In this document: positions 247-14,530 of the stretch, piece by piece | Layout of the letters: each line of letters opens with the position of its first letter | How positions within the stretch are numbered: position 1 is the stretch's first letter | DNA from: a virus | Length of the DNA stretch: 20,273 nt | IMG/VR virus record: IMGVR_UViG_3300033074_002003 | Strand: one strand, 5' to 3' | The notes under the pieces: generated by a model | What the model was told of the DNA's origin: nothing | What the model saw: the letters and a program-made list of their open reading frames with translations, nothing else | The model's database searches: none | Program-made: the position numbers and the translations under genes

Positions 247-318
247 GCACTGTTAGTGAAATGGGCATCACGTTTCTCTCTGAAAGAAAAATTGAAGGTT
301 CGAATCCTTCACAGTGTA
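247..318 (+). tRNA. tRNA-Gln(CTG), 72 nt, AT-rich
   Basis: Acceptor GCACTGT/ACAGTGT with one G-U pair. D-stem GTGA/TCAC. Anticodon stem TTTCT/AGAAA with loop CTCTGAA, giving CTG. T-arm GAAGG-TTCGAAT-CCTTC. The N-terminal extension of the track ORF 256..1080 overlaps this tRNA. Confidence 0.65.
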
Positions 319-360
319 CAATGTCTCGTTTCGAACCAATTATTCATCGTGACAACAATT

Positions 361-1080
361 TTGAAATGTGAATTGTGTGACGGTGATCACGAAGGGTTTT
401 ACGGGAGTGGAAGATTTTGCAGCAAAAAGTGTGCAAGGGCATTTTCAACACATAAATCGCGCAATGAAATCAACGAAAAAGTAAGTCAAACCCTTGTAGG
501 TAGAAGTCGTCGACTTCTACGTGCTGATGATAAACGCTTGCTGTTGAAAGTTGTCATTGATGAAAATCAGCTGCGCGAAGAAATCAAATTTGCTGTAAGC
601 TTTCGAAATCTAGCGCTAAGAATGAATTTGTCACTTAATCAAGTTCATAAAGTGAAAAAAACAGTTCAACGCTTGGGGCTTGATTATTCGCATTTTCGTT
701 TGGGACGAGCGCCTGAAAAAGTTCTTTGTCGCAGCAACAAACGAGGTGATTTGCGCGGAGCTCTCCTGAAATCAGAAAGAGAGTACAAGTGTGAAGAATG
801 TGGTCTCACGTCAAAATGGCAAGAAAAGAAGCTCACACTCCATGTCGATCACATTGACGGTGACAACGAGAATCACGAAGCGTCTAACTTAAGATTTCTT
901 TGTCCGAATTGTCATTCACAAACAGATACATTTTCGTGGAAGAACGTGCGACGCAAAAAGCTTCTTAAAAATGCGGGTTCGAGTCCCGCTCTCCCATCTG
1001 CCTGCTCGGCGCAGAGAGCTGTAGACACCTTGACAACAATGTGGTGTGACGTTCGAGAGAGATCGAAGACGGGGCTGTAA
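361..1080 (+). CDS. HNH homing endonuclease, probable TTG start; a paralog of the CDS at 9020..9622
   Basis: HNH motif HVDHIDGDNENHEASNLRFLCPNCH. The N-terminal KCELCDGDHEGFYGSGRFCSKKCARAFS matches MKCERCQVEHSGTYGSGRFCTVKCARSFS of the second copy, so the start is set at TTG 361, in frame with the listed ORF 256..1080. The gene is AT-rich in a GC-rich context. The C-terminal ~40 codons are GC-rich, read through a tRNA 3'-half remnant, and overlap tRNA-Ala, so the true C-terminus is uncertain. Confidence 0.6.
   Translation: MKCELCDGDHEGFYGSGRFCSKKCARAFSTHKSRNEINEKVSQTLVGRSRRLLRADDKRLLLKVVIDENQLREEIKFAVSFRNLALRMNLSLNQVHKVKKTVQRLGLDYSHFRLGRAPEKVLCRSNKRGDLRGALLKSEREYKCEECGLTSKWQEKKLTLHVDHIDGDNENHEASNLRFLCPNCHSQTDTFSWKNVRRKKLLKNAGSSPALPSACSAQRAVDTLTTMWCDVRERSKTGL
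937..997 (+). pseudogene. tRNA 3'-half remnant embedded in the 3' end of the HNH ORF (T-arm GCGGG-TTCGAGT-CCCGC plus acceptor strand)
   Basis: Perfect T-arm at 973-989 followed by TCTCCCA. The only upstream acceptor partner, TGGAAGA, is about 60 nt away, which is too short for a full tRNA, and no D or anticodon arm can be formed. Confidence 0.4.
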
Positions 1081-1143
1081 CTCAATTGGGAGAGTGCTAG
1101 CTTTGCAAGCTAGAAGTTGCCGGATCATCCCCGGTCAGCTCCA
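1071..1143 (+). tRNA. tRNA-Ala(TGC), 73 nt
   Basis: Acceptor GGGGCTG/CAGCTCC with the G3:U70 Ala identity pair. D-stem ACTC/GAGT. Anticodon stem CTAGC/GCTAG with loop TTTGCAA. T-stem GCCGG/CCGGT, but the T-loop ATCATCC is non-canonical. Confidence 0.55.
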
Positions 1144-1162
1144 CAAGGTCGTGATCGAGTTT

Positions 1163-1235
1163 CGGGATATAGTGCAACCTGGTAGCACACGAGTTTTGGG
1201 TACTTGAAATTTCGGTTCAAATCCGAATATCCCGA
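1163..1235 (+). tRNA. tRNA-Pro(TGG), 73 nt
   Basis: Acceptor CGGGATA/TATCCCG. D-stem GTGC/GCAC. Anticodon stem CGAGT/ACTTG with loop TTTGGGT. T-arm TTCGG-TTCAAAT-CCGAA. Confidence 0.7.
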
Positions 1236-1408
1236 CTAGTGAGAGAGAAGTGGCTGTCGATAAGCTTGGGCAGCACGGGACGAGCGACCGAGCCCTGATC
1301 AAGGCAGTGGGACTACTCTTCGCCGACGGGCGGGTCTAAGCCACCGAGCGCGGATCTATCGCGGTGTGCACTTGCGCACGCTCTCTCCAGTTTTAAGGAA
1401 ATGGGAAG

Positions 1409-1615
1409 ATGCCGACAAGTCCTGAAGACATTGGCGGGTTCGGTGGAGCGAAGGAGTCAAGGAAGAGGGTCGCAGACATCGACTTCATACAGAGGTGTCG
1501 AAGCTCCTCAGAAGAGGAACTTCTGAAGATGTTCTTCGCTCACTGTCGCAAGGGAGCTCCAGAGTGGAAAAGGGTCGCGATCAAGCGGGCGCTGGCCCGG
1601 ATCGCGAGGGAATAA
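1409..1615 (+). CDS. hypothetical protein (68 aa)
   Basis: ATG preceded by AAGGAAATGGGAAG. GC-rich codon third positions. No recognisable motif. Confidence 0.4.
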   Translation: MPTSPEDIGGFGGAKESRKRVADIDFIQRCRSSSEEELLKMFFAHCRKGAPEWKRVAIKRALARIARE

Positions 1616-1616
1616 T

Positions 1617-1689
1617 CAGCGTGTAAGTCAGAAGCTAGACAGCATCCCTCGGAAGGATGAAGACGGGGGTGCAAGTCCCTCCACGCTGA
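1617..1689 (+). tRNA. tRNA-Pro(CGG)-like, 73 nt
   Basis: Acceptor CAGCGTG/CACGCTG is perfect. Anticodon stem CATCC/GGATG with loop CTCGGAA, giving CGG. T-stem GGGGG/CCCTC with an unusual T-loop TGCAAGT. The D-stem is only 3 bp. Confidence 0.5.
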
Positions 1690-1753
1690 CTGAGAGTGGA
1701 TGTGTGAACATCCCGAGTGCTGTGCCGTACAATCACTCATAAGGAGAAATGTG

Positions 1754-2353
1754 ATGCAACTGAAGAGCTATTTCAGCCGTGTTCGTAGGCGCAGCGGTTG
1801 GCCCGATGGGTGTTCTTATCCCACAGCGAGGGCTGTTGTTGTCGCGAAGGACGTTCTCGCTGCGATCTCTGCCGGGAGGTTCAGGGTCGAGCAGGGTGCT
1901 TACGTAGACACAGACGTACCGGGTACTTCGGGTGACGGTGAGCCCCTGCGAGAGAACCTACGCCGCGCGGCTCTTCGCGCCCAGGACTACAGTCCGAAGG
2001 ATGAGTGCCGTGTCTGTGCGCTCGGCGCCTGCTTCATCGCAATGATCGATCGCGGCACGATTGTCAGAGACGATACGTGGTTCGACAATCGCTATGATCT
2101 CTACGAAGAGCTTCAGGACATCTTCACTCCAGAGGAGTTTGACCTCATCGAGGAGGCATTTGAGCTCGGCGGCGTGCACACCGACATCCACGACACGCTT
2201 CCCGCCCACCGCGCGAGGAACTTCGGTCGCCGTCGCAAGGACCCGGTGCAGAGGCTTGAGGCGATCATGCAGAACATCGTCGACAATCGCGGGGAGTTCA
2301 TTCCACCGACGAAGTACACGGACCCGCTCTCGAAGAGCTACCGTGGCGAATAG
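1754..2353 (+). CDS. hypothetical protein (200 aa)
   Basis: AAGGAG sits 7 nt upstream of ATG 1754. The listed ORF 1700..2353 would start inside tRNA-Pro, so the internal ATG is preferred. Followed by a strong hairpin terminator. Confidence 0.55.
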   Translation: MQLKSYFSRVRRRSGWPDGCSYPTARAVVVAKDVLAAISAGRFRVEQGAYVDTDVPGTSGDGEPLRENLRRAALRAQDYSPKDECRVCALGACFIAMIDRGTIVRDDTWFDNRYDLYEELQDIFTPEEFDLIEEAFELGGVHTDIHDTLPAHRARNFGRRRKDPVQRLEAIMQNIVDNRGEFIPPTKYTDPLSKSYRGE

Positions 2354-2361
2354 GTAAGATG

Positions 2362-2389
2362 TGTCGCGCTCTAGCGAGCGCGACAGTTT
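2362..2389 (+). terminator. rho-independent terminator-like hairpin (10-bp perfect GC-rich stem TGTCGCGCTC/GAGCGCGACA, loop TAGC, then GTTT)
   Basis: Seen directly in the sequence, 9 nt after the TAG stop of the 1754..2353 CDS. The T-tract is short, at 3 T. Confidence 0.45.
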
Positions 2390-2464
2390 GGGGATGTGGT
2401 CAAACGGCGAAGGCGTCTCCCTCAGAAGGAGAAGATTTTGTGGGTTCGAATCCCACCTTCCCCA
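2390..2464 (+). tRNA. atypical tRNA-like gene, anticodon CAG (Leu-type anticodon but short variable region), 75 nt
   Basis: T-arm GTGGG-TTCGAAT-CCCAC is perfect. Acceptor GGGGATG/CTTCCCC has one T:T mismatch. Discriminator A. Anticodon stem TCTCC/GGAGA with loop CTCAGAA. 3-bp D-stem with a 10-nt loop. The variable region is 7 nt. Confidence 0.4.
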
Positions 2465-2527
2465 CAGCGCACTGGGACCCGTAAAAAGCGAAAACAAGCG
2501 CAAAGAACGGGTTCCGGTGTGTCACAT

Positions 2528-2605
2528 GCGTCGGTGGACAAATTTCGGTAAAGTCGCTGCGTCGAGATCGCAGAGATTGTGTGGGTTCGAATCCCACCCG
2601 ACGCA
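2528..2605 (+). tRNA. atypical tRNA-like gene, anticodon GAG (Leu-type), 78 nt; a paralog of 2390..2464
   Basis: Same T-arm GTGGG-TTCGAAT-CCCAC and the same 7-nt variable AGATTGT. Acceptor GCGTCGG/CCGACGC is perfect. Discriminator A. Anticodon stem CTGCG/CGCAG with loop TCGAGAT, where C33 is non-canonical. 3-bp D-stem with a 13-nt loop. Confidence 0.4.
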
Positions 2606-2628
2606 CTAGTTACGAATGAGAGGGAACG

Positions 2629-2910
2629 ATGGCACCACAGGTACCCAACAAACAGGACGGAGAGGTCATCGCGTTCCTAGACGCCGCCCGGGCGAAGAAA
2701 GCCGCCCGCAAGTTCGAGGCGCTCGTGATGCCTTTTGTGAGGGGGTGGGACGAGCACTCTGAGCACCTCGAGCCCGGGTACCTCGCGGAGTTCATGAAGC
2801 CGGAGGACATGAGGGTGTTCGTACTTCTTCTCCGCGAATACAAGAGTGCCGCACAGCGACTCAGTGGGTTCCTCAAGGCACAGCGAACAAAGATTTCTGG
2901 GGGTCACTGA
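2629..2910 (+). CDS. hypothetical protein (93 aa)
   Basis: GAGAGGGAACG precedes the ATG. High GC3. Confidence 0.45.
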   Translation: MAPQVPNKQDGEVIAFLDAARAKKAARKFEALVMPFVRGWDEHSEHLEPGYLAEFMKPEDMRVFVLLLREYKSAAQRLSGFLKAQRTKISGGH

Positions 2911-2952
2911 GGGCACCCGGGATACAGACGCGGAGCGACTGAGTTCCGGGTC

Positions 2953-3141
2953 TTGACACACACACACGAGGTTACAATGGCTGAAAGTGGATACGAGCTG
3001 CGAGCGCGCATGCTCCAACTCTCTAAGGATATGCACTCGGAGCGCATGCACGCGCAAAATCCGAAAGTTCCGTACACGCTTGATGAAGTGCTGAAGGAAG
3101 CAGAGAGGCTCTACGCCTTTGTGCAGACAAAGACTCGGTGA
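2953..3141 (+). CDS. hypothetical protein (62 aa)
   Basis: GAGG 6 nt upstream of the ATG. Small basic protein. Confidence 0.4.
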   Translation: MTHTHEVTMAESGYELRARMLQLSKDMHSERMHAQNPKVPYTLDEVLKEAERLYAFVQTKTR

Positions 3142-3224
3142 CGAGATGACGTGAGCGTGAGTAGCTCGTTGCAGTTGACGGGCTAGCTCACGTCCGTATG
3201 AAGCAGGATAGAGAGGGTCGAGAC

Positions 3225-3536
3225 ATGGCACAGGTTCTTCACGTCACTGACGATGACATCGCGGACATTCGCCGGACGAGCAGGTCGCTGATCAAGTTCG
3301 GCGCGACGTGGTGCGGGCCCTGCAAGCTGATGGATCCGAAGTTCGAGGAGGTCGCGCTCGAGTGCACCTCACCCGCGAAGTTCTTCTCTGTCGACGTGGA
3401 CGAGTGCCCACAGCTCTCGAAGGTTTTCGGTATCAGGGGCGTCCCGACGATTGTGGTCGTCGAGGGAAATGACGAGGTCGCCCGCCTCGTGGGAAATGTC
3501 TCGAAGGAGAAGATCGTGGCGCTGTGCCGCGAGTGA
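3225..3536 (+). CDS. trx: thioredoxin
   Basis: Canonical WCGPC active site (FGATWCGPCKLMDP) and a thioredoxin-like length. Start set at the second ATG, 3225, after GAGAGGGTCGAGAC. The listed ORF starts at 3198. Confidence 0.7.
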   Translation: MAQVLHVTDDDIADIRRTSRSLIKFGATWCGPCKLMDPKFEEVALECTSPAKFFSVDVDECPQLSKVFGIRGVPTIVVVEGNDEVARLVGNVSKEKIVALCRE

Positions 3537-3538
3537 TT

Positions 3539-3610
3539 GCTGCGATGGTGTAGCTGGAAACACAGGGCTCTCGTAATGCCCAATCCCCGTTTCGAATACG
3601 GGTCGCAGCT
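3539..3610 (+). tRNA. tRNA-Thr(CGT), 72 nt
   Basis: Acceptor GCTGCGA/TCGCAGC. D-stem GTGT/ACAC with loop AGCTGGAA. Anticodon loop CTCGTAA. T-arm CCCGT-TTCGAAT-ACGGG. Confidence 0.65.
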
Positions 3611-3615
3611 CGAAT

Positions 3616-3688
3616 GCTATGTTAGCTCAGCTGGTAGAGCAGCTGTTTTGTAAACAGCAGGTCACCCGTTCGATCCGGGTACATAGCT
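3616..3688 (+). tRNA. tRNA-Thr(TGT), 73 nt
   Basis: Acceptor GCTATGT/ACATAGC. D-arm TAGCTCAGCTGGTAGAGC. Anticodon stem GCTGT/ACAGC with loop TTTGTAA. T-arm ACCCG-TTCGATC-CGGGT. Confidence 0.75.
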
Positions 3689-3689
3689 C

Positions 3690-3759
3690 CGGTGCGTGGT
3701 TTGGTCGACCTAGGTGGCCTTATGAGCACTGAAGGCAGGTTCGATTCCTGCCGTACCGA
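3690..3759 (+). tRNA. degenerate tRNA-like element (good acceptor and T-arm, no canonical D or anticodon arms), 70 nt
   Basis: Acceptor CGGTGCG/CGTACCG and T-arm GCAGG-TTCGATT-CCTGC are good. The central 38 nt (TGGTTTGGTCGACCTAGGTGGCCTTATGAGCACTGAAG) holds two nested palindromes, GGTCGACC and CCTAGG, but no 5-bp stem with a 7-nt loop. Confidence 0.3.
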
Positions 3760-3823
3760 CTGACACGACTTTCTTAACAGAGCTTGTTGACAGACGAATG
3801 CAAAATCTGTCAGTGGGGATAAA

Positions 3824-3894
3824 GCGCGCGTGGTGTAATGGTAGCACTTAAGAACGCCATTCTTAGGGTGAGGGTTCGAATCCCTCCGCGCGCT
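3824..3894 (+). tRNA. tRNA-Gly(GCC)-like, 71 nt
   Basis: Acceptor GCGCGCG/CGCGCGC. D-arm GTGTAATGGTAGCAC. Anticodon stem TAAGA/TCTTA with loop ACGCCAT, which has a non-canonical A32 and C33. T-arm GAGGG-TTCGAAT-CCCTC. Confidence 0.55.
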
Positions 3895-4009
3895 CAGGGG
3901 GCAAGTGTGAGAGCCCCTGCGAGCGATTAGATGCCGAAGCGATGTACTGGAAACGAGCGGGAGCGTCGTGACGGCGTAACCCCTCGCTGGTCGTCGCAAT
4001 CTCACAGAC

Positions 4010-4082
4010 GCGCGAGTAGCTCAACTGGTAGAGCGTCGGTTTTCCAAACCGAATGTTGCCCGTTCAAACCGGGTCTCGCGCA
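4010..4082 (+). tRNA. tRNA-Gly(TCC), 73 nt
   Basis: Acceptor GCGCGAG/CTCGCGC. D-arm TAGCTCAACTGGTAGAGC. Anticodon stem TCGGT/ACCGA with loop TTTCCAA. T-arm GCCCG-TTCAAAC-CGGGT. Confidence 0.75.
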
Positions 4083-4083
4083 C

Positions 4084-4165
4084 GCAAGTGTGGTGGAATG
4101 GCAGACACTGCGATCTCAAACATCGCTGTCCAGAGGACGTGAGGGTTCGAATCCCTCCTCTTGCA
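4084..4165 (+). tRNA. tRNA-Leu(CAA), type II, 82 nt
   Basis: Acceptor GCAAGTG/CTCTTGC has one mismatch. 3-bp D-stem. Anticodon stem GCGAT/ATCGC with loop CTCAAAC. Variable arm GTCC-AGA-GGAC. T-arm GAGGG-TTCGAAT-CCCTC. Discriminator A. Confidence 0.7.
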
Positions 4166-4169
4166 CTCT

Positions 4170-4219
4170 TGGGCGCCCAGGTGGGAACCACCACGGTCAC
4201 GAATTCGGGCGCCCGATTT
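4170..4219 (+). terminator. spacer hairpin: two copies of the palindromic octamer GGGCGCCC (4170-4177 and 4207-4214) can pair across a 29-nt loop, followed by GATTTT
   Basis: Seen directly. Sits between tRNA-Leu and tRNA-Asn. Could be a terminator or an RNA processing structure. Confidence 0.3.
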
Positions 4220-4292
4220 TGGGAGGTATCATAACTGGCAATGATGCGAACTGTTAATTCGTAGTATGCAGGTTCGAATCCTGCCCTCCCAG
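4220..4292 (+). tRNA. tRNA-Asn(GTT), 73 nt
   Basis: Acceptor TGGGAGG/CCTCCCA. D-stem TCAT/ATGA with loop AACTGGCA. Anticodon stem GCGAA/TTCGT with loop CTGTTAA. T-arm GCAGG-TTCGAAT-CCTGC. Confidence 0.75.
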
Positions 4293-4394
4293 CCCACTGT
4301 CCCGTGAAACGGACACCATCTTGCTCGTAGTTCGGTCAAACGGAAAGGGTTCACGTCTTGTTACGTAATGTTTCGTGTTGTGTAATATGTCTAC

Positions 4395-5048
4395 ATGGAC
4401 AACACGAAACGCTACATCTACTTCATTGTCAATCGCATAAACTCTAAACGATACGTTGGACAAACACGTGATTATGTAAAAAGATCTAAGCAACATTTTT
4501 CTGAGGGCAAGAAGGGTAGAAAACGACATCCACTCTACGATTCCATGTTTTCACACGGGATCGAAAATTTCGAATTTGTTGTGATACAAGAGTGTTGCGA
4601 AAATGACGTTGATGAGTGTGAGATAGCGTGGATTAAAGCATTGTGCACTCGTGATAGAAGATTTGGATACAATCTTACGCCGGGTGGTAGTGCAATGTCG
4701 AGTTGTGTCTATGAGAAAATTTCAAAATCAATGTCTGGTAGACATTTCACACCCGAACACAAGGCAAAAATAGCTCAAGCGTTGAGAGGACAAAAGAGAC
4801 CTCCTTTGAAAGTTGAGCACGTTGAAAAGATAAGAAAATTCAACTTAGAGTCGCCGCCCTTTGCGGGTAAAACTCATACTGTTGAAACGCGTGAGAAAAT
4901 ACGTTGCGCAAATTCCAAATTGACGCGTGAAATCGTGAAAGTGATTCGCGAAGAATTCAATAATGGAACATCTCGTAAAGAGCTTGCACAAAAATATCAG
5001 GTTTCGTATAGTGCAATCAAGAATATCGTTGCAGGTAGACGCTGGTGA
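4395..5048 (+). CDS. GIY-YIG homing endonuclease (I-TevI-like, with NUMOD-type repeats)
   Basis: N-terminal RYIYFIVNRINSKRYVGQT with the GIY-YIG signature, Arg (CTRDRRFGYN) and Glu. C-terminal repeated SGRHFTPEHKAKIAQA and GKTHTVETREKIR NUMOD3-like motifs and an HTH-like tail. AT-rich island directly after the tRNA array. Confidence 0.75.
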   Translation: MDNTKRYIYFIVNRINSKRYVGQTRDYVKRSKQHFSEGKKGRKRHPLYDSMFSHGIENFEFVVIQECCENDVDECEIAWIKALCTRDRRFGYNLTPGGSAMSSCVYEKISKSMSGRHFTPEHKAKIAQALRGQKRPPLKVEHVEKIRKFNLESPPFAGKTHTVETREKIRCANSKLTREIVKVIREEFNNGTSRKELAQKYQVSYSAIKNIVAGRRW

Positions 5049-5085
5049 ACAAGCGTCACCTCCGATGTAGCTATTCTAGGGTGCC

Positions 5086-5421
5086 ATGAGTTACTATTCG
5101 ACCGTCGAGCTCATTCGCATAATCGGAAGTGATCCGTTTGTGGCATGGGCGCGCAAGTGCGAAGAGTGTGGGGGTCGCCTCGTGCTGCGCAGGGACGTCG
5201 AGGTTCGCTACATGGAGCGCACGAAAGACTGCAAGGGCAAGTGGGTCTGGATCTCACACAGGGGCAACAAGCGCGGGAGGAAGCGAGTCCTCGAGAAGTG
5301 CTACCTGAAGCAGTGCGCGGCCTGCGGCGAGAGGACAGAGGACGCCTGGTGTATGATCAGGAACGCAGAAGCGAGCGATCACTACCGCACAGAACGGGAG
5401 GGTGCCGGCTATGAGTTTTAG
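5086..5421 (+). CDS. small zinc-ribbon protein, paralog 1 of 4 (two CxxC pairs)
   Basis: KCEECGGRLVLRR plus CAACGERTEDAWC. The ATGAGTT start is shared with the three downstream paralogs. GC-rich. Confidence 0.5.
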   Translation: MSYYSTVELIRIIGSDPFVAWARKCEECGGRLVLRRDVEVRYMERTKDCKGKWVWISHRGNKRGRKRVLEKCYLKQCAACGERTEDAWCMIRNAEASDHYRTEREGAGYEF

Positions 5422-5638
5422 CGCAGCAGTCGCCGCGATGCGCGCTCGCGGGACACGCGTATTCTCGAGGAGGAAGTGCCCGAACTGTGGCTACACACTC
5501 AGGCTGCACCGCGAGTCTTTTTACGACGAAGACATTGGCTACTACGAGCGCAAGTGGAGCAAGCTCTGTGGCTGGTGCGCCAGTATGTACTGCGATGCGT
5601 CAACTGACGTCAGAAATTCATATGAGAAGAGAGTATGA
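5411..5638 (+). CDS. small zinc-ribbon protein, paralog 2 of 4
   Basis: MSFSAAVAAMRARGTRVFSRRKCPNCGYTLRL plus CGWCASMYC. Start set at the second ATG, 5411, after the strong SD GGGAGGGTG. The track ORF starts at 5402. Overlaps the paralog 1 stop. Confidence 0.5.
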   Translation: MSFSAAVAAMRARGTRVFSRRKCPNCGYTLRLHRESFYDEDIGYYERKWSKLCGWCASMYCDASTDVRNSYEKRV

Positions 5639-5898
5639 GTTTCAGGCGTATTGTTCAGATTTTGAGGGACTGGAAGACAACAATATACTCTCGACGTCGC
5701 TGTACTTGTGGCGGTCTGCTTATCTTGCGTCGCAACATCAGAGCGTTCAGAAATCGTAGCAAGGGTGTGAAACAAATCGACCGCACTTTTTACAAGCGGT
5801 GTACCCGATGCAAGCAGGCGTTCGCAGATCCACAAACAGTCGTCATGAACGCCGAAGACACCAGACGTCGTTACAAGACGGGTGAGAAAGTAGGATGA
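5635..5898 (+). CDS. small zinc-ribbon protein, paralog 3 of 4
   Basis: MSFRRIVQIL..SRRRCTCGGLLILRR plus CTRCKQ. ATGA overlap with the upstream stop. Lower GC than paralogs 1 and 2. Confidence 0.5.
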   Translation: MSFRRIVQILRDWKTTIYSRRRCTCGGLLILRRNIRAFRNRSKGVKQIDRTFYKRCTRCKQAFADPQTVVMNAEDTRRRYKTGEKVG

Positions 5899-6137
5899 GT
5901 TTCCAGAGTGTCGTGAAGCTAATGAAAACGTACGGCGAACGCACTTTCTCGAGGAGGAAGTGTCAAGACTGCGGCCACCGCCTCGTCCTCCGAAAGGGCA
6001 GAGCGGTGATAAGAGTACGGCACTCAAACGGCACGTGTCGCGTGAACCGCAGCTTCTACATCAAAATTTGCGAGGGGTGTAAGATCGATGAAACTGACAT
6101 TCAGGTTCGCCTATTGAACAACCCAAATCAGAAATAA
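5895..6137 (+). CDS. small zinc-ribbon protein, paralog 4 of 4
   Basis: MSFQSVVKLMKTYGERTFSRRKCQDCGHRLVLRKGR plus CEGCK. ATGA overlap with the upstream stop. Confidence 0.5.
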   Translation: MSFQSVVKLMKTYGERTFSRRKCQDCGHRLVLRKGRAVIRVRHSNGTCRVNRSFYIKICEGCKIDETDIQVRLLNNPNQK

Positions 6138-6138
6138 C

Positions 6139-6211
6139 GCTGTCATAGCTCAGCTAGAAGAGCGCCACTTTGGTACAGTGGAGGCCGCCGGTGCGATTCC
6201 GGCTGACAGCT
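6139..6211 (+). tRNA. tRNA-Thr(GGT), 73 nt
   Basis: Acceptor GCTGTCA/TGACAGC. D-arm TAGCTCAGCTAGAAGAGC. Anticodon stem CCACT/AGTGG with loop TTGGTAC. T-stem GCCGG/CCGGC with loop TGCGATT. Confidence 0.65.
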
Positions 6212-6216
6212 CCAAT

Positions 6217-6296
6217 CCCGTCGTCGTCCAATGGAAGGGCACCGGTCTACGAAACCGGGCAGAGATGCAATGCAGGTTCGAGTCCTGCCGGCGGGG
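6217..6296 (+). tRNA. tRNA-Arg(ACG) with an unusually long (13-nt) variable region, 80 nt
   Basis: Acceptor CCCGTCG/CGGCGGG with one G-U pair. D-stem GTCC/GGGC. Anticodon stem CCGGT/ACCGG with loop CTACGAA. Extra GCA-GAGA-TGC mini-arm before the T-arm GCAGG-TTCGAGT-CCTGC. Confidence 0.5.
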
Positions 6297-6462
6297 CAAT
6301 AGGCGACAGTCGTCGTCCACACCGAAGACTATGACTCGGACGTGTGAGCCGCTCGGAAGCCCGTGCAGAGGGAAGAGAGCGGAAAGTGCCGAGGGCTGTC
6401 GCACTAGCTCGGAGCACCGAAGACAAGTGCTGTAAGTGGGTTGCTCCGCGATGCGGCACTCT

Positions 6463-6548
6463 GGAAGGTAAACCGGCTACGGAGCTGGGCCCGCCTCGAA
6501 AGCGGTGCGGGGCGGCAACGCCCTGGGGTTCGAGCCCTCTACCTTCCG
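6463..6548 (+). tRNA. tRNA-Ser(CGA), type II, 86 nt
   Basis: Acceptor GGAAGGT/ACCTTCC is perfect. Anticodon loop CTCGAAA. Variable arm GGGCG-GCAA-CGCCC. T-loop TTCGAGC. Overlaps the spurious N-terminal extension of track ORF 6505..6903. Confidence 0.6.
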
Positions 6549-6570
6549 CGGAGACGTCATACTTAACGGG

Positions 6571-6903
6571 ATGGCGAACGTGAACGACATCGTGAGGGCC
6601 CTCGTCAGAGAGGTGATTGAGACGTACGATCCGACGGGCGGCGGGTTCAATCCCTACGCTTCTGAGATGGAACTAGACGTCGCGATGATCGACGGAAACA
6701 CGGTGCGAGCGGTCATCGAGTACGGGTACGACGGCGACGAGGTCTCGATCGACAGGGTTCGCAACGCAGAGACCGGCGAGGTCATCCCTCCAGAGGCGCT
6801 CGCCGCAGAGGAAGACGAGCTGCAGATGATCGTGTGGGAGAAGAGAAAAGAAGACGACGAGGTAGAAGCGGCGGCTGACAGGGCCGATTCGCTCGACTGG
6901 TGA
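6571..6903 (+). CDS. acidic hypothetical protein (110 aa)
   Basis: Start moved to ATG 6571, downstream of tRNA-Ser. High GC3. Asp/Glu-rich C-terminus. Confidence 0.45.
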   Translation: MANVNDIVRALVREVIETYDPTGGGFNPYASEMELDVAMIDGNTVRAVIEYGYDGDEVSIDRVRNAETGEVIPPEALAAEEDELQMIVWEKRKEDDEVEAAADRADSLDW

Positions 6904-6913
6904 ACGAGAGATT

Positions 6914-7002
6914 GGAGGGCGTAGACCTGCGTGGTGCGGGCATTCGTTTGGAAAACGAATAGGTGCCGTGAGGTGCCTGCGGTTCGATTCCGCCGCCCTC
7001 CG
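6914..7002 (+). tRNA. tRNA-Ser(GGA), type II, 89 nt
   Basis: Acceptor GGAGGGC/GCCCTCC is perfect. Anticodon stem TTCGT/ACGAA with loop TTGGAAA. Long variable arm. T-loop TTCGATT. Discriminator G. Confidence 0.6.
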
Positions 7003-7042
7003 CTGCTGTGAACAACACAGTGACCCAGAGTAAAATTCTAGG

Positions 7043-7297
7043 GTGAAGCGGTCTGATTGGGTGCCCACCGTGGGCGACATCGTGACAAACAAGTCGTCTG
7101 TCGCGATGTTTCGGGTGATCGAAGTCACTGAGGAGTACGTGCGAGCTCGAAAGGTCTTCTCCCTCTCAAAGAAGAGGGGTGGGGTCTATCGAATTAGCAA
7201 GTTGGGCCTCAGGAAGTTTGTTGTGACCGACCTCCACGAGATGAGCAACTCTCTCGTCGCGCTCGTAGCGGGCGAGAGAAATAGGGGAGCTCGGTGA
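7043..7297 (+). CDS. hypothetical protein (84 aa as listed; start uncertain, GTG or an internal ATG)
   Basis: Open frame with GC-rich third positions. No clear RBS. The start overlaps a motif, ATTCTAGGGTG, that is also found before the CDS at 5086. Confidence 0.3.
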   Translation: MKRSDWVPTVGDIVTNKSSVAMFRVIEVTEEYVRARKVFSLSKKRGGVYRISKLGLRKFVVTDLHEMSNSLVALVAGERNRGAR

Positions 7298-7304
7298 CAG
7301 TTAT

Positions 7305-7380
7305 GGTGGTGTTAGCCTAGTGGTTAGGGCACTCGAATGTGACTCGAGAAATTCGCACGGTTCGATTCCGGCACATCACC
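7305..7380 (+). tRNA. tRNA-His(GTG) with G-1, 76 nt
   Basis: Acceptor GTGGTGT/ACATCAC, preceded by G-1, which can pair with discriminator C. This is the His hallmark. D-stem GCCT/GGGC. Anticodon stem CTCGA/TCGAG with loop ATGTGAC. The T-loop TTCGATT is present but the T-stem is weak, at 3 bp. Confidence 0.6.
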
Positions 7381-7393
7381 CTATGTAGCTTAC

Positions 7394-8272
7394 ATGCTTA
7401 GAACGTGTGATTATTGTGACTTGACTGATGACTTTAATAGCGTTCAATCTTGGGCAGCACACCGTTCGAATTGTATAAAAAATCCCAATCGAACAGCGAA
7501 GCTGGCGAGAATGAGTGAATCGGCAGCCAAAGTTTCACGTAAAATCCTTGCTTTGACGTGTAGTTGTGGTTCGCTATTTTCCATAGAAGTCACAGACGCT
7601 GAAATTACGCGTGGTGCACATAGACACTTCTGTTCGCGGCAATGTGCAAATCGTCGTCAGCATTCGTCTGAAACCAAACAGAAAATTTCGCAAAGTGTTT
7701 CCAGATTTTTTCCCGAATCTATTTCTGTCGAAGTTGAATGTGCCGAGTGCAAGCGTAAATTCGTTGGTAAAACAGGAAGAACGTGTTGTTCACAACAGTG
7801 CGCTCGCGTAATCAATAATCGAAAAAGAATGATTGCAGCACAGTTGCCAGAAACTAGAGCAAAGATCGCAGCGAAGACTTTAGAGGCTTATGCTAACGGT
7901 CGCGAACAGTGTGGTGGGCGAACGAAATGGTTTGATGTTTACACGCTTCGATACGGCAAAATTCGTGTGCAAGGGACGTATGAAGTTCGAGCGTGTCAAA
8001 TTCTTGACAAGATGCTTGCTTCTGGAGAATTGATCGCGTGGGAATATACACGAGCTAGATTTCCTTATGTAGACACGTCTGGCAAACAACGTATGTACAG
8101 ACCGGATTTCAAGCTTGTTTATCCTACACACGAAGAATTTGTTGAAACGAAGGGATTTTCAACACCAAATGACGAACGCAAATGGGAAGCTCTTCGTTTG
8201 TTGGGTCATCATTTGTCAGTGTGGCGTGAAGCTGATCTCAAACAACGTGAATCTAAAGAGCATATGTCCTGA
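7394..8272 (+). CDS. putative free-standing nuclease with a PD-(D/E)xK / Vsr-like (DUF559-like) C-terminal domain and two N-terminal Cys-rich C..CAR modules
   Basis: The C-terminal YEVRACQILD..WEYTRARFPY..YRPDFKLVYPTHEEFVETKG matches the PD..(D/E)xK arrangement. HFCSRQCANRRQ and TCCSQQCARVINNRK resemble the GRFCSKKCARAFS module of the two HNH genes. AT-rich island between tRNA-His and downstream genes. Confidence 0.5.
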   Translation: MLRTCDYCDLTDDFNSVQSWAAHRSNCIKNPNRTAKLARMSESAAKVSRKILALTCSCGSLFSIEVTDAEITRGAHRHFCSRQCANRRQHSSETKQKISQSVSRFFPESISVEVECAECKRKFVGKTGRTCCSQQCARVINNRKRMIAAQLPETRAKIAAKTLEAYANGREQCGGRTKWFDVYTLRYGKIRVQGTYEVRACQILDKMLASGELIAWEYTRARFPYVDTSGKQRMYRPDFKLVYPTHEEFVETKGFSTPNDERKWEALRLLGHHLSVWREADLKQRESKEHMS

Positions 8273-8284
8273 GAGGACACGACA

Positions 8285-8524
8285 ATGAACTGTTCGGTGG
8301 CGCTACGCAACACAATGGCAAACATCGCGCTCGATGCGTTCCCGTTCGCCACGGGCGCGTGGACAGACGGCGATCGCGTGGTCGTGTACGTTAGCGACGA
8401 CCACGACCTCACCGACCAGAGGTCAGGCGACGCGACGTTCAGGTTTCCGGAGTTCGACGGCGAGTCAGTGAGAGAAATTTCGAGGCCCGTCACCATCGAA
8501 TTCGTGAGACACTCGTTCACGTAG
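8285..8524 (+). CDS. hypothetical protein (79 aa)
   Basis: GAGAGGACACGACA precedes the ATG. High GC3. Confidence 0.45.
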   Translation: MNCSVALRNTMANIALDAFPFATGAWTDGDRVVVYVSDDHDLTDQRSGDATFRFPEFDGESVREISRPVTIEFVRHSFT

Positions 8525-8584
8525 CTTAATTGGTAAAGCACCGCATTTTGGCGGAGGCTGTGAGTTCGAATCTCATCGTGAACA
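8515..8584 (+). pseudogene. degenerate tRNA-like gene (70 nt) with a 4-bp anticodon stem and a 6-nt loop
   Basis: Acceptor GTTCACG/CGTGAAC is perfect. D-stem GCTT/AAGC. T-arm GTGAG-TTCGAAT-CTCAT. The anticodon arm is CCGC-ATTTTG-GCGG, which is 3 nt too short. Overlaps the stop of the 8285..8524 CDS. Confidence 0.35.
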
Positions 8585-8586
8585 CA

Positions 8587-8889
8587 ATGTGGGCAACATC
8601 ATACATAGAAGCGCTGCGCGCGGGTGAGACGGTGTCTTTTAGGCCCCGTGGGAACTCGATGCGTCCAAAGATCGAGTCCGGACAGCTTGTCACTGTCTCG
8701 CCCGTCGGCGAGCGCGAGCTGCAAACGGGAGACATCGTCTTGTGCAAGGTTTCTGGTCACCAGTACCTGCACATCATCACCGCCATCGATCAGGACGGCA
8801 GGTGCCAGATCAGCAACAACAGGGGTCACATCAACGGGTGGGCACAGCGACAGAATGTGTTCGGCGTTGTCGTGAAGGTAGAGGACTGA
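8587..8889 (+). CDS. S24-family (LexA/UmuD/signal-peptidase-like) peptidase domain protein
   Basis: GNSMRPKIESGQLVTVSP...GDIVLCKVSG resembles the S24 Ser-Lys dyad motifs (GxSMxP ... GDxVxxK). Start moved to ATG 8587, after the tRNA-like element. The track ORF starts at 8530. Confidence 0.45.
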   Translation: MWATSYIEALRAGETVSFRPRGNSMRPKIESGQLVTVSPVGERELQTGDIVLCKVSGHQYLHIITAIDQDGRCQISNNRGHINGWAQRQNVFGVVVKVED

Positions 8890-8895
8890 GAGAGC

Positions 8896-8982
8896 GGGAG
8901 ATTAGTTCAGAGGAAGAACGCGTCCCCTACAAGGACGATGCCCTTAGGGTTTACACAGGTTCGAATCCTGTATCTCCTACCA
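8896..8982 (+). tRNA. orphan type-II tRNA with anticodon loop CCTACAA (TAC by standard numbering, C33) and an encoded 3' CCA; isotype uncertain
   Basis: Acceptor GGGAGAT/ATCTCCT. D-stem GTTC/GAAC. Anticodon stem CGTCC/GGACG is perfect. 17-nt variable arm GCCC-TTA-GGGT. T-arm ACAGG-TTCGAAT-CCTGT. Discriminator A, then CCA. Confidence 0.45.
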
Positions 8983-9019
8983 CACCTAGTGTTCACATAG
9001 TTCGATATAACTATCGTTC

Positions 9020-9622
9020 ATGAAATGTGAACGCTGTCAAGTTGAACACAGTGGGACGTATGGTTCGGGAAGATTTTGCACAGTCAAGTGTGCGAGATCT
9101 TTTTCAACAGCGTCTACTTCTGAAAAACGTTCAGAGATCAACAAACGAGTATCAGCGACACTAACGCAACCGCCAAAAGTAGCGACCTGTTGCATGTGTA
9201 ACACGCGGTATGAAACGCGACATCAGCGTTCTACATGTTGTAGTAAAGAGTGTCGAAAAGCTCGTAAAGCTCAAGTACAACACAACGTAACTAGAGAACA
9301 AAGAATCGAATTGGGCATCAAGAGTTCCTTTGGCAAATATGTTCGAAATCCGACAAGTTTGTATGATTTGAGCAACCGAACAATCAGTAAGATTCTTACA
9401 AGACTCGGAATCGGGTGTTCTTTGTGTGGTTGGTCTGCTGGAAAGTGTGACATTCATCACATTCGTGGTCGGAAAATTGAAGAAGCAGACAGACACGAAA
9501 ATTTGGCCTACGTGTGTCCAAATTGTCACAGGCTGATTCACAACAAGAAAATCAAGATTGACAGTCTTGTATCACTTCAAGATCAGATTGGTGATCGCTG
9601 GAAAGAGCTCTATTACGGTTAA
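9020..9622 (+). CDS. HNH homing endonuclease, a paralog of 361..1080
   Basis: N-terminal MKCERCQVEHSGTYGSGRFCTVKCARSFS. HNH motif CDIHHIRGRKIEEADRHENLAYVCPNCHRLIHN. AT-rich. Confidence 0.75.
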   Translation: MKCERCQVEHSGTYGSGRFCTVKCARSFSTASTSEKRSEINKRVSATLTQPPKVATCCMCNTRYETRHQRSTCCSKECRKARKAQVQHNVTREQRIELGIKSSFGKYVRNPTSLYDLSNRTISKILTRLGIGCSLCGWSAGKCDIHHIRGRKIEEADRHENLAYVCPNCHRLIHNKKIKIDSLVSLQDQIGDRWKELYYG

Positions 9623-9623
9623 G

Positions 9624-10013
9624 ATGAAAGTACTGATTTCTGGCGATCGAGAGTGGACGGACGTCGAGACTATTGTTGCTGCACTCGAGATGCTCCCGCC
9701 CGGGTCTGTCATCGTTCACGGCAACTGTCGGGGCGCTGACATCATTGCTCGCGAGTGTGCGATCGCAATGGGCATCGAGCACAGGTCCTACCCCGCGAAG
9801 TGGCACTTGTACGGAAATTCGGCGGGCGCGATTCGCAACAGAGAGATGGTTCGCGAGGAACACCTGTCAGAAGAGCCCATTGAGCTGGTGCTGGCGTTTC
9901 ACGACTCACTCACAGAAAAAAGCAAGGGAACGAGAGACATGGTAACCGTTGCTGAGGCTGTGGGAATTCCCTGGGTGCTTTGCCTGTCCGCCGCGAAGCG
10001 CGCGAATATGTAA
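9624..10013 (+). CDS. SLOG / DUF2493-like (YspA-like Rossmann) protein
   Basis: MKVLISGDREWTD...VIVHGNCRGADIIARECA...YPAKWHLYGNSAGAIRNREMV matches the phage DUF2493/SLOG signature (GxxxGAD ... GPIRN). Start set at ATG 9624, just after the HNH stop. The track ORF starts at 9558 inside the HNH gene. Confidence 0.5.
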   Translation: MKVLISGDREWTDVETIVAALEMLPPGSVIVHGNCRGADIIARECAIAMGIEHRSYPAKWHLYGNSAGAIRNREMVREEHLSEEPIELVLAFHDSLTEKSKGTRDMVTVAEAVGIPWVLCLSAAKRANM

Positions 10014-10020
10014 GAGAGCA

Positions 10021-10506
10021 ATGTCGTCGCTTCGCACCTTCGTGCAGATTCTCGTCGAGAGGGTGGGTGCTCCGCTACCAGACGAGGCGATTAGTGCGAT
10101 CGTGGGGGAGTACGCAGAGTCGCCGAAGCACCCTGAGATGCGACTCACGTGGAAGTGGGGCTCTGTTCACAGCGGCAGGCGCGTTCCCGGGTGGGGAGCG
10201 TACGTTCCCGACGATTTCGCGATTGTGATGAAGAGGTCGAGGGGAGCGAGCCCAGAAGATTTTGTCCTGACGCTCCTGCACGAGCTCGAACACTACAACC
10301 AGCACGTGAGAATGGCAGATGAGCTCCCGCAGGGCGCGACGAGGCAGGAGATCGTCGACGCATGGACAGAGTCGTACGGCGGGGCACTGAACACCTCGTC
10401 CTACGATGATAATATGTACGAGGTCTCAGCAGAGGCATTTGCACAGTCAGAGTTGGAGAACGCTCTGCAGATCGCTGGGATCACCCCGTCGTGGCCGAAT
10501 GGATAG
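10021..10506 (+). CDS. putative zinc metallopeptidase (HExxH)
   Basis: LTLLHELEHYNQH HExxH motif. Start set at ATG 10021, after AAGAGAGCA. Confidence 0.4.
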   Translation: MSSLRTFVQILVERVGAPLPDEAISAIVGEYAESPKHPEMRLTWKWGSVHSGRRVPGWGAYVPDDFAIVMKRSRGASPEDFVLTLLHELEHYNQHVRMADELPQGATRQEIVDAWTESYGGALNTSSYDDNMYEVSAEAFAQSELENALQIAGITPSWPNG

Positions 10507-10510
10507 GCAC

Positions 10511-10559
10511 CTCCCTCCGAAGGAGACTCACGCAGGTTCGAATCCTGCCGAAGGGGCCA
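10511..10559 (+). pseudogene. tRNA 3' fragment: short hairpin CTCC-GAA-GGAG, T-arm GCAGG-TTCGAAT-CCTGC, acceptor strand, discriminator and encoded CCA
   Basis: The T-arm is identical to that of tRNA-Asn at 4268-4284. No acceptor 5' partner lies within 90 nt upstream. Confidence 0.4.
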
Positions 10560-10570
10560 TAGTTACAAAT

Positions 10571-10657
10571 GGGAATCTAGCTCAAAGTCCGCGTCAGCGG
10601 GGGCAGAGCGGTCCGTTAGTAAGCGGACAGGTCCCGGTTCGAGCCCGGGGATTTCCT
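10571..10657 (+). tRNA. atypical 87-nt tRNA-like gene (perfect acceptor and T-arm, 8-nt anticodon-type loop TTAGTAAG, hairpin inserted in the D region)
   Basis: Acceptor GGGAATC/GATTTCC. T-arm CCCGG-TTCGAGC-CCGGG. Stem GTCCG/CGGAC closes an 8-nt loop. The D region GCTC...GAGC encloses an extra 5-bp hairpin, TCCGC-GTCA-GCGGG. Confidence 0.35.
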
Positions 10658-10661
10658 CAGA

Positions 10662-11195
10662 TCACTTGTCGGTGCGTGGGATGGGAGGTTTTGCCGCGAC
10701 GGACGAGACTCTCTTTGTCTGTGTGCTGTCGTTCTTCGTGAGCGCCTTGTGAATCGCCGTCGGGCGAGGTGGCGGAGCGGTATCGCCCGTGTGGACCTCG
10801 CGGAGGCTCGGTATCGAGATCTTCTTTACGTTTGACTCGAGTGCAGCCTCGATTTCAGAGATTCGCCTCTGCACCTCGACGTACTTCGCGAGGAGCGCGT
10901 CGTAGTCCTCGCGCTGCGACGCGATCGTCGACATGAATGTCGTGTAGCCCGCCTGCGCATCTTTGATGTCGTTCAGCATGAAAGCGGCGTCCCGGCGCAG
11001 CTCGTTCAACTGAGCCTCCAGTGCCTGGTTTTCTTTCGTGGCCGTAAATCCGGTGACGATCTCTTCCTTTACGCGCCACAGCAGGTAGATCACGATCAGT
11101 CCGATAGCGAGCGCTCCCACCTTGATGCAGAGGTCTAGGAGGACTGGGTCGACGAAACGACCGAAATCGAACTGCGAGGCCGAGGACAAAAACAT
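10662..11195 (-). CDS. membrane-anchored coiled-coil protein (N-terminal transmembrane helix, type-II topology), the only minus-strand gene
   Basis: Hydrophobic LLDLCIKVGALAIGLIVIYLLW. Heptad-like ALEAQLNELRRDAAFMLNDIKDAQAGY. Pro-rich tail. Start set at the internal Met (ATG at 11195-11193 on the minus strand) because the listed start, 11285, would overlap tRNA-Ser(GCT) on the + strand. Confidence 0.45.
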   Translation of the reverse strand: MFLSSASQFDFGRFVDPVLLDLCIKVGALAIGLIVIYLLWRVKEEIVTGFTATKENQALEAQLNELRRDAAFMLNDIKDAQAGYTTFMSTIASQREDYDALLAKYVEVQRRISEIEAALESNVKKISIPSLREVHTGDTAPPPRPTAIHKALTKNDSTQTKRVSSVAAKPPIPRTDK

Positions 11196-11221
11196 GACAA
11201 AGTGTAAGTATTGAACGACAC

Positions 11222-11309: not shown

Positions 11310-11364
11310 GCTGCTTCCGCAAATCTGAACACCACCCAGTAGAGCGGTATGATAGGACGGACAG

Positions 11365-13639: not shown

Positions 13640-13640
13640 G

Positions 13641-14520: not shown

Positions 14521-14530
14521 CGACGAGTAG

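Follow-up and report, generated by a model that had tools for sequence, protein, structure and literature searches.

Free-standing nuclease genes sharing an FCS-type finger module among the tRNA genes of an uncultivated large phage

The stretch of viral DNA of 20,273 nucleotides (nt) recorded as IMGVR_UViG_3300033074_002003 in IMG/VR, referred to below at its full length as the window, represents the part of a phage-like genome in which the tRNA genes lie. It comprises 26 tRNA genes, all on the plus strand (ARAGORN), 22 of which are confirmed by Rfam at gathering score, and three nuclease genes, g1, g2, and g3, whose products share a cysteine-rich N-terminal module. The G+C content of the backbone is ca. 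60% (positions 10000–20273), while four gene islands, all within 9 kb, are AT-rich: g1 (41.4% at 361–985), a gene with GIY-YIG, NUMOD3, and helix-turn-helix (HTH) domains (40.4% at 4395–5048), g2 (43.5% at 7394–8272), and g3 (42.5% at 9020–9622). Rfam at gathering thresholds yields tRNAs only, and a group I/II intron or intein context of the islands was rejected on this ground; since no intron family is found in the window, the nuclease genes are free-standing. A preliminary description, made from the letters of this DNA, had named three AT-rich free-standing nuclease genes with a common Cys-rich module; the genes are confirmed as such, and all coordinates and peptides it quoted are found in place. 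Proteins exactly matching those of the window are encoded on a 329,329-bp metagenomic contig, and a search of the INPHARED/GenBank phage collection brought up a 55-nt match, within a tRNA, to Synechococcus phage S-CAM3 and no other sign of a relative. The features of the locus are collected in Table 1.

g1 and g3 code for HNH endonucleases and g2 for a nuclease of the PD-(D/E)xK type. g1 reads KCELCDGDHEGFYGSGRFCSKKCARAFSTHKSRNEINEKVSQTL, with a TTG start predicted from the N-termini of the family, g3 reads KCERCQVEHSGTYGSGRFCTVKCARSFSTASTSEKRSEINKRVSATL, and g2 contains HFCSRQCANRRQHSSETKQKISQSVS, TCCSQQCARV...IAAKTL, and YRPDF...VETKG. The unit common to them is C-x(1-2)-C…[F/C]-C-[S/T]-x2-C-[A/R] followed by a basic helix, and it occurs five times in the window, once in g1 and twice each in g2 and g3. 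The preliminary description had counted two diverged copies in g2, correctly, and had missed the second copy of g3, CCMCNTRYETRHQRSTCCSKECRKARK. A six-frame search of the window with the regular expression [FCYW]C[STA]xxC[ARQ] gave five matches, all within the three genes. In BLASTP comparisons g1 and g3 align over their whole length (5e-17), g3 and g2 over a segment spanning both tandem modules (E=0.003), and g1 and g2 at E=0.03. The copies were also scored (Table 1) with a family hidden Markov model (HMM) built from 94 modules of database relatives, the window's own proteins being excluded, at Z=1e6. At this setting copy a of g2 has an E value of 0.32; over the seven proteins searched the values are ca. 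1e-6 for copy a and ca. 1e-3 for copy b.

The low scores of the g2 copies taken singly (16.8 and 7.7 bits), together with the modest g1–g2 alignment, are what could be expected if the likeness lay in generic cysteine spacing, arisen by chance or through unrelated zinc ribbons having converged. Such a limited similarity was looked for by alignment, and a different picture was found. The four Cys ligands, C-x2-C...[F]-C-[S]-x2-C, are present in all five copies (invariant columns C3, C6, C20, and C24), but the non-Cys positions E4, G15, G17, R18, F19, and A25 are conserved as well, at 90% or more, as is the EIN-KVS helix among the canonical modules, so that the similarity exceeds Cys spacing. Moreover, g3 and g2 align across both tandem modules, g2 is homologous (1e-35) to proteins carrying the canonical module in the same position, and the five regular-expression matches in 20 kb times six frames are confined to these three genes. 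Generic spacing is thus of negligible probability and, as far as family alignments go, already refuted; the module shared by g1, g2, and g3 is, on sequence evidence, real and well beyond chance.

The profile of 31 modules matches in the Protein Data Bank (PDB) the FCS finger of polyhomeotic-like 1 (2L8E, E=1e-5), followed by L3MBTL2 (2W0T, 0.27) and the MYM finger of ZMYM5 (2DAS, 1.3); in the profile of the g2 family, the positions corresponding to copy b match 2L8E at E=0.036. The Pfam family most often matched by the modules is zf-FCS_1 (12 of 31, always under its cut-off), NUMOD3 is matched by three of 31 at E<=1, and one of 141 module-bearing representatives reaches E<1e-3 with an FCS model of Pfam. 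g1 itself scores 16.4 bits with zf-FCS_1 (E=0.0099, cut-off 26.6), and g2 scores 15.4 bits with NUMOD3 (E=0.018, cut-off 20.4) and 12.7 bits with zf-FCS (E=0.12, cut-off 22.4); no match to zf-FCS or zf-FCS_1 is found for g3, nor to NUMOD3 for g1 and g3. The structure prediction called for in the preliminary description gave, for the 50-residue module, an AlphaFold model with a confidence (pLDDT) of 82, in which a zinc knuckle runs into a helix (residues 22–49). Its Foldseek neighbours, L24e, 2L8E (root-mean-square deviation 2.2 A over 30 columns), and YacG, all have E>0.6, below significance for this short domain. L24e, the 2L8E finger, and YacG are all treble clefs of the TRASH type (PMC4999995). 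Taken together, the profile matches identify the module as a four-cysteine FCS-type zinc finger (a predicted TRASH-clan treble clef) related to the Polycomb FCS finger, predicted to continue directly as a basic alpha-helix whose S-E-x-K/N-x-K-[IV]-S motif is NUMOD3-like; the likeness of this helix to NUMOD3 is positional and at the motif level only. By homology to FCS fingers, the module is predicted to bind zinc and, likewise, would bind DNA. In many relatives it is followed by a second element, which is either NUMOD3 repeats (P0017, P0024, and P0042; NUMOD3 is present in six of the 141 representatives, with a best E value of 9e-14) or another FCS finger of looser form, the arrangement seen in g3 and g2.

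The HNH domains of g1 and g3 keep an intact H-N-H core with two CxxC pairs, and both exceed the Pfam cut-off. They represent different subtypes, g1 matching phrog_10822 (amino acids, aa, 67–207, 2.4e-34) and g3 phrog_1271/740. g3 has 367 homologs at E<=1e-3, mostly of full length, and its module b is kept in the closest relatives (P0006–P0011). The last ca. 32 codons of g1 read through a GC-rich tRNA remnant, in which the G+C content is 56.8% (986–1080) against the 41.4% of the preceding part of the gene. The orphan tRNA 3' piece found there has no matching 5' half, and its best local matches are the 3' ends of tRNA genes of the window; by its sequence it resembles what is left of a tRNA gene that was resident there and was broken on the arrival of g1. 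It is worth adding that tRNA-Gln(CTG), located just before g1, has a G+C content of 41%, compared with 55–65% in the neighbouring tRNAs, and may have come with g1. Its co-transfer is unsupported, the tRNA-Gln genes beside the closest g1 relatives being only 60–62% identical.

In g2 the first Cys pair of module a is C-x-C, and the copy fits the CANxR..S.ETK.KIS sub-variant of the HNH family. Fingers of the CxC/CxxC...H...H/C kind, like the first one of g2, also begin P0118, P0122, L165, and L166. The catalytic domain of g2 had been labelled PD-(D/E)xK/Vsr-like. The first half of the label holds: E217, D238, E251, and K253 are invariant across ten members of the g2 family and align with the endonuclease I motifs, and the profile of the ten members matches T7 endonuclease I in the PDB (3CAE, E=0.006; 1M0D, E=0.008). 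g2 alone gives weaker values with the same enzyme (E=0.18 in the PDB; 13.1 bits with Pfam Phage_endo_I, PF05367, cut-off 29.1). The Vsr-like (EDxHD) half was rejected, as Pfam shows no Vsr- or DUF559-type match with E<=1 for g2 and the PDB none with E<=10. The C-terminal 115 residues of g2 are modelled with high confidence (pLDDT 77–94). Foldseek with the AlphaFold model of g2, whose N-terminus has a pLDDT below 50, returned mostly PD-(D/E)xK enzymes (Bax1, RecU, Hjc, and VRR-NUC), as weak matches with probabilities of up to 0.97 and E>=0.01. The g2 catalytic domain is accordingly assigned, from motifs and profiles, to a predicted PD-(D/E)xK fold closest to T7 endonuclease I.

The presence of one module on HNH and PD-(D/E)xK nucleases had been proposed to result from domain shuffling. 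An ordinary whole-gene paralogy within one family would explain g1 and g3, which align end to end, HNH domain included: being homologous over the whole length, this pair shares the module by common descent and not by shuffling. In g2, by contrast, the catalytic domain has a different fold. The relative P0003 combines the g2-type nuclease domain with an N-terminal canonical GSGRFC module (76.6 bits) almost identical to that of g1, and in six IMG/VR proteins (L064, L071, L050, L062, L066, and L029), which match g2 with 32–38% identity over the region from the FCS motif to the C-terminus (E down to 1e-35), a canonical module is followed by a second finger and a PD-(D/E)xK domain. The g1-type HNH domain, in turn, is found in IMG/VR loci with quite different, HTH-like N-termini. 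An exhaustive search with the module profile over 1.84 billion representatives gave 2,719 clusters (50% identity) at E<=1e-3 and 1,025 at E<=1e-10. As a word-index search with the same profile returned just fragments of up to 93 aa, partner domains were taken from the exhaustive representative search and Pfam. Among the best 141 representatives the partners are HNH_3 (16), HNH (13), DUF559 (14), MTES_1575 (13), DUF7487 (8), TnsA-like, endonuclease I, and DUF2726 domains (3 each), and GIY-YIG, endonuclease VII, NinG, and Tox-REase-7 (one each). Inspection likewise found the module joined to GIY-YIG, DUF559-type domains, and several PD-(D/E)xK cores. Altogether it is carried by at least six nuclease families of at least three catalytic folds. 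That g2-domain relatives carry the canonical module, and that the partners of the module vary, implies that module and nucleases were exchanged as units. Whole-gene paralogy is therefore a very improbable account of the shared module, already refuted for g2 and true only for the g1/g3 pair, and the proposed shuffling stands for g2 versus the HNH genes: judged from the architectures, which document it directly, the module has recombined onto HNH and restriction-endonuclease-like folds.

In GenBank, the canonical module was located in just 11 of 50,697 phage records, all of them unannotated, metagenome-derived assemblies of Lak megaphages, and no description of an FCS-type finger in a homing-endonuclease role was found in the literature searched. 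The literature on FCS domains notes merely their occurrence in prokaryotes and viruses (PMC4047054). The new element here is the FCS-type finger as an interchangeable nuclease module; modular homing endonucleases themselves are established. Two proteins of eukaryote- or protist-like appearance and low complexity, P0239 (IMG, 1051 aa) and P0241 (an MMETSP transcript, 622 aa), have three to four canonical GSGRFC modules in tandem and lack a nuclease; P0239 additionally matches NUMOD1 and I-HmuI NUMOD-like domains.

Module genes were located in or beside tRNA genes at all loci examined. Scanning IMG/VR with the pattern [GE]xYGSGRFC yielded 215 confirmed relatives; 80 loci were kept, 58 remaining after dereplication at 90%. 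All 58 have tRNA genes within 5 kb (median 10), and at 41 a tRNA lies no more than 150 bp from either end of the gene; the stop codon of 17 module genes is located within 20 nt of the next tRNA. The tRNA density falls from 3.1 per kb beside the module gene to 0.3–0.8 per kb at 4–5 kb, and 637 of 658 tRNAs are co-oriented with the module gene. The real loci contain 1,743 tRNAs, against none in 1.36 Mb of shuffled loci; of virus genomes at large, only ca. 14% have any tRNA gene (PMC6409571). The G+C content of the module genes is a median 6.9 points lower than that of their own flanks. Particular junctions recur: P0003 ends inside tRNA-Ala(TGC), as g1 overlaps tRNA-Ala(TGC); P0006, 55% identical to g3, starts 53 nt after tRNA-Val(TAC), the same tRNA that precedes g3; the g2 relative P0002 directly follows tRNA-His(GTG), as does g2; and L055 and L012, the closest relatives of g1, also follow tRNA-Gln(CTG). 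P0017, P0004, and P0062 are located inside tRNA arrays, and in other phages relatives occupy different inter-tRNA positions.

On the sequence evidence, g1, g2, g3, and the GIY-YIG gene beginning at 4395 are probably all free-standing genes of the homing-endonuclease type, situated in the tRNA array of a large uncultivated phage, and the module common to g1–g3 is probably an interchangeable DNA-binding unit. g1–g3 have the context and composition expected of homing genes, being free-standing between tRNA genes and having 41–44% G+C against 60% in the genome, and we infer both homing and its target. According to the mechanism envisaged, nuclease genes would have colonised the tRNA gene array of such a phage. 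The N-terminal FCS finger with its helix, together with a second finger or NUMOD3 repeats where present, would anchor the protein on DNA, and the C-terminal nuclease, an HNH domain of one of two subtypes or a T7-endonuclease-I-like PD-(D/E)xK domain, would cut nearby from the end of a variable linker, a layout corresponding to the I-TevI design with the domain order reversed. Repair would then copy the gene, and often the neighbouring tRNA genes too, into the cut genome. The likely targets, by analogy with T4 SegB, may be the DNA of tRNA genes or tRNA–tRNA junctions. Module and nuclease domains would be swapped by recombination among the side-by-side nuclease genes of tRNA arrays, for which the crowding of four such genes within 9 kb offers an opportunity. 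The AT-rich genes, the orphan tRNA end in the g1 tail, and this crowding fit a homing mechanism.

Several observations weigh against this reading. On the window proteins the Pfam models zf-FCS (PF06467), zf-FCS_1 (PF21319), and NUMOD3 (PF07460) all remain under their cut-offs, and Foldseek gives no significant match for the g2 model or the 50-residue module model. The seven contigs with g2 share an identical gene arrangement and include no allele of this phage without the homing endonuclease gene (HEG-less), so that mobility is a deduction. A control set of 80 IMG/VR loci (L097–L176), fetched by the g1-type HNH domain alone irrespective of the N-terminus, comprises one gene with the canonical module, 19 with other FCS-like fingers, and 60 with none; all 80 loci have tRNA genes, and 55 of the 60 FCS-less genes lie within 300 bp of one. 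The canonical module is, moreover, nearly invariant although the genes adjoin many different tRNAs, which argues against its setting the site specificity. Polycomb FCS fingers are reported to be non-specific binders of RNA and DNA. The plant FLZ domain, related to FCS, mediates protein–protein contacts (PMC4047054).

Two consequences follow from the control. The FCS-less g1-type HNH genes being equally confined to tRNA arrays, tRNA targeting is not creditable to the module, and residence in tRNA arrays characterises the nuclease guild as a whole and is not tied to the FCS module; an explanation of the tRNA association by the module alone was abandoned, all 80 same-domain loci lying at tRNA genes. 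The preliminary description had suggested that the module, found in three genes in or beside tRNA genes, may define target preference. The location is borne out, but a role of the module in target preference is not established, 60 of 60 FCS-less control genes being at tRNAs as well. The g1-type HNH domain, LxLxxxHIDGxxxNNxxxNLxxLCPNCHSQT, is found beside tRNA genes whatever its N-terminus, mostly an HTH-like one, which suggests that it represents a separate HNH lineage specific to tRNA arrays.

The module might not target DNA at all, binding instead RNA (e.g., tRNA precursors) or a protein partner, or stabilizing the fold, with DNA recognition left to the nuclease domain or the linker. Its near-invariance beside different tRNAs, the tRNA-array residence attained without it, and the binding habits of the FLZ and Polycomb relatives agree with such a role. 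Nevertheless, the module is situated where modular homing endonucleases carry their DNA-binding modules, it is followed by true NUMOD3 repeats in many members, the three relatives named above among them, and sister HNH genes have HTH-like domains in the same position, so a module without a part in DNA targeting is deemed unlikely.

Somewhat less unlikely, though still not favoured, is that the genes are not, or not only, selfish and serve the phage, e.g., by cutting the tRNA arrays of co-infecting phages, which would exclude these, or by favouring recombination or amplification through which the tRNA repertoire is reshuffled. SegB secures preferential inheritance of the T4 tRNA region (PMC2330249), and some groups of phage tRNA clusters have HNH genes among their core genes (PMC6409571); in a further report, SegB is credited with amplifying anti-defence tRNA loci (PMC13096335). 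The catalytic motifs of g1, g2, and g3 are intact, and the genes are arranged in the same way in all seven contigs. On the other hand, the strong G+C contrast points to a recent foreign origin, positions among the tRNAs vary between relatives, and a benefit to the phage is compatible with homing.

Going beyond the homing-endonuclease reading, the FCS-plus-helix unit could be an undescribed fifth kind of nuclease-associated DNA-binding module that reads an element common to tRNA genes, e.g., the TpsiC box (GGTTCGAATCC); this is a speculative and rather doubtful extension. If it were true, the genes would form a guild of nucleases with interchangeable catalytic domains, specialised in cutting tRNA arrays and in spreading and reshuffling them among unrelated phages. 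As a corollary, the eukaryotic Polycomb FCS finger and the tandem GSGRFC repeats of protists would have originated as modules of such mobile elements. An origin of this kind, from HNH homing endonucleases, has been proposed for the plant AP2 domain.

Table 1. Nuclease genes, their domains, and adjoining tRNA genes in the window
Feature	Positions	Strand	Motif or location	Evidence
tRNA-Gln(CTG)	247..319	+	ends 42 nt before g1; 41% GC, unusually AT-rich	ARAGORN, Rfam
g1, free-standing HNH endonuclease gene with one N-terminal FCS-type module	361..1080	+		Pfam HNH 26.2 bits (cut-off 21.4)
g1 canonical module, aa 2–48	364..504	+	C-x2-C...GSGRFCSKKCARAFST and EINEKVSQTL helix	family HMM 73.8 bits
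g1 HNH core	790..921	+	CEEC...HVDHIDGDNENHEASNLRFLCPNCH	Pfam HNH, aa 144–187
Orphan tRNA 3' piece	973..996	+	T-arm GCGGGTTCGAGTCCCGC and acceptor strand TCTCCCA; in g1 3' tail	read from sequence
tRNA-Ala(TGC)	1071..1144	+	10-nt overlap with the stop end of g1	ARAGORN, Rfam
GIY-YIG, NUMOD3, and HTH nuclease gene, without FCS module	4395..5048	+		Pfam GIY-YIG 5.7e-11, NUMOD3 1.2e-08
tRNA-His(GTG)	7306..7381	+	g2 starts 13 nt downstream	ARAGORN, Rfam
g2, free-standing PD-(D/E)xK nuclease gene	7394..8272	+	CxxC..HxxxC finger, two diverged FCS-type modules, C-terminal nuclease domain	
g2 first finger, aa 5–27	7406–7474	+	CxxC...HxxxC, ahead of FCS modules	
g2 module a, aa 56–103	7559..7702	+	CSCG...HFCSRQCANRRQHSSETKQKISQSVS	family HMM 16.8 bits
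g2 module b, aa 116–163	7739..7882	+	CAECKRKFVGKTGRTCCSQQCARV...ETRAKIAAKTL	family HMM 7.7 bits; BLASTP with g3 module b
g2 predicted nuclease domain, aa 174–290	7913..8263	+	E217, D238, E251-x-K253	AlphaFold pLDDT 77–94
tRNA-Val(TAC)	8896..8982	+	g3 starts 38 nt downstream	ARAGORN, Rfam
g3, free-standing gene for an HNH endonuclease; two FCS-type modules at the N-terminus	9020..9622	+		Pfam HNH 25.9 bits (cut-off 21.4)
g3 canonical module a, aa 2–50	9023..9169	+		family HMM 74.4 bits; AlphaFold pLDDT 82
g3 module b, aa 57–103	9188..9328	+	CCMCNTRYETRHQRSTCCSKECRKARK and helix	regular-expression match; BLASTP alignment with g2 module b
g3 HNH core	9416..9547	+	CSLCG...CDIHHIRG...NLAYVCPNCH	Pfam HNH, aa 133–176; PDB IscB HNH E=0.009

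The remaining part of the window has several features of its own. tRNA-Val(TAC) at 8896–8982 is 87 nt long, with an insertion of ca. 13 nt in the variable region, unusual for a Val tRNA. Three ARAGORN tRNAs have non-standard anticodon loops, at 90–164 ('tt'), 8515–8585 ('tt'), and 10571–10658 ('agcg'), and could be frameshift-suppressor-like or decayed genes; the call at 8515 scores 60 bits with Rfam. Relatives of the GIY-YIG gene of the window, sought in IMG/VR as a control, were not found there. Four tandem paralogous small open reading frames (ORFs) at 5086–6137 (111, 78, 87, and 80 aa), each with two CxxC pairs (e.g., RRKCPNCGYTLRLHR...CGWC), are predicted to make up a small unannotated family of zinc-ribbon proteins within the tRNA array, and the ORF at 3198–3536 is likely a thioredoxin, judged from its WCGPC motif alone. 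The backbone genes at 12600–13466, 15109–16452, and 16449–17321 include, by their Pfam tags, a sigma-70-like factor, an ATP-dependent DNA ligase, and a histone-deacetylase-family protein; the gene content beside the array is typical of a large phage.

The interest of the module lies partly in an annotation gap: a compact finger-plus-helix unit occurs in ca. 2,700 protein clusters, unannotated by Pfam and absent from cultured phages. Since it is naturally joined to at least six nuclease families, it offers a ready-made system for studying how binding modules and catalytic domains are matched. Modular homing endonucleases are the classic example of how selfish elements shuffle their domains, and programmable nucleases are drawn from them. 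The residence in tRNA arrays at all loci examined points to a dedicated nuclease community, which probably drives the turnover of phage tRNA repertoires, now linked to anti-defence. Finally, the likeness to the Polycomb FCS finger raises the question of the origin of that eukaryotic domain.

Compared with the Polycomb FCS fingers (PHC1, 2L8E; L3MBTL2, 2W0T), the module has the same C-x2-C...[GS]-x-RFCS-x2-CA-[KR] pattern, with 37% identity across the finger. Those fingers belong to chromatin proteins, whereas the module sits on phage nucleases and has an added conserved helix. The g2 catalytic domain shares with T7 endonuclease I (1M0D, 3CAE) the E...PDF...ETKG signature, while the T7 enzyme has no counterpart of the long N-terminal zinc-finger region of g2. 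Homing endonucleases with a PD-(D/E)xK fold are already known, examples being I-Ssp6803I and I-Bth0305I.

In overall design the closest analogue is I-TevI, whose DNA-binding domain (PDB 1I3J) consists of a zinc finger, a NUMOD3 minor-groove helix, and an HTH. I-TevI resembles the proteins studied here in that a small Cys4 finger leads directly into a basic helix of the form S-x-x-x-K-x-K-I-S, and in that a flexible linker connects this part with a separate nuclease domain. It differs in that the module described here is N-terminal, i.e., the order is reversed, its finger is of the FCS type, and its partners are HNH and PD-(D/E)xK domains rather than GIY-YIG. Homology to the I-TevI finger was rejected and the likeness kept as an analogy, as the module profile has no I-TevI match in the PDB at E<=10 and the module helix aligns weakly with the NUMOD3 helix of I-TevI (hhalign probability 16%, helix only). 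The concept of a shuffled module is that of the NUMODs (Pfam NUMOD1, NUMOD3, and NUMOD4), which Sitbon and Pietrokovski are said to have described in 2003 as short DNA-binding modules shuffled among HNH, GIY-YIG, and other homing endonucleases. Some module-bearing proteins carry true NUMOD3 repeats, but the FCS finger is not among the described NUMODs.

As to location, homing endonucleases are known from phage tRNA clusters, namely the HNH enzymes F-TflI/II/IV of the T5 tRNA region. These and T4 SegB differ from g1–g3, as far as tested, in their catalytic and binding domains. SegB, a GIY-YIG enzyme, is like g1–g3 encoded by a free-standing gene between phage tRNA genes. Located in the T4 tRNA cluster, it recognises a 27-bp site including an 11-bp TpsiC motif and drags neighbouring tRNA genes along with its own (PMC2330249).

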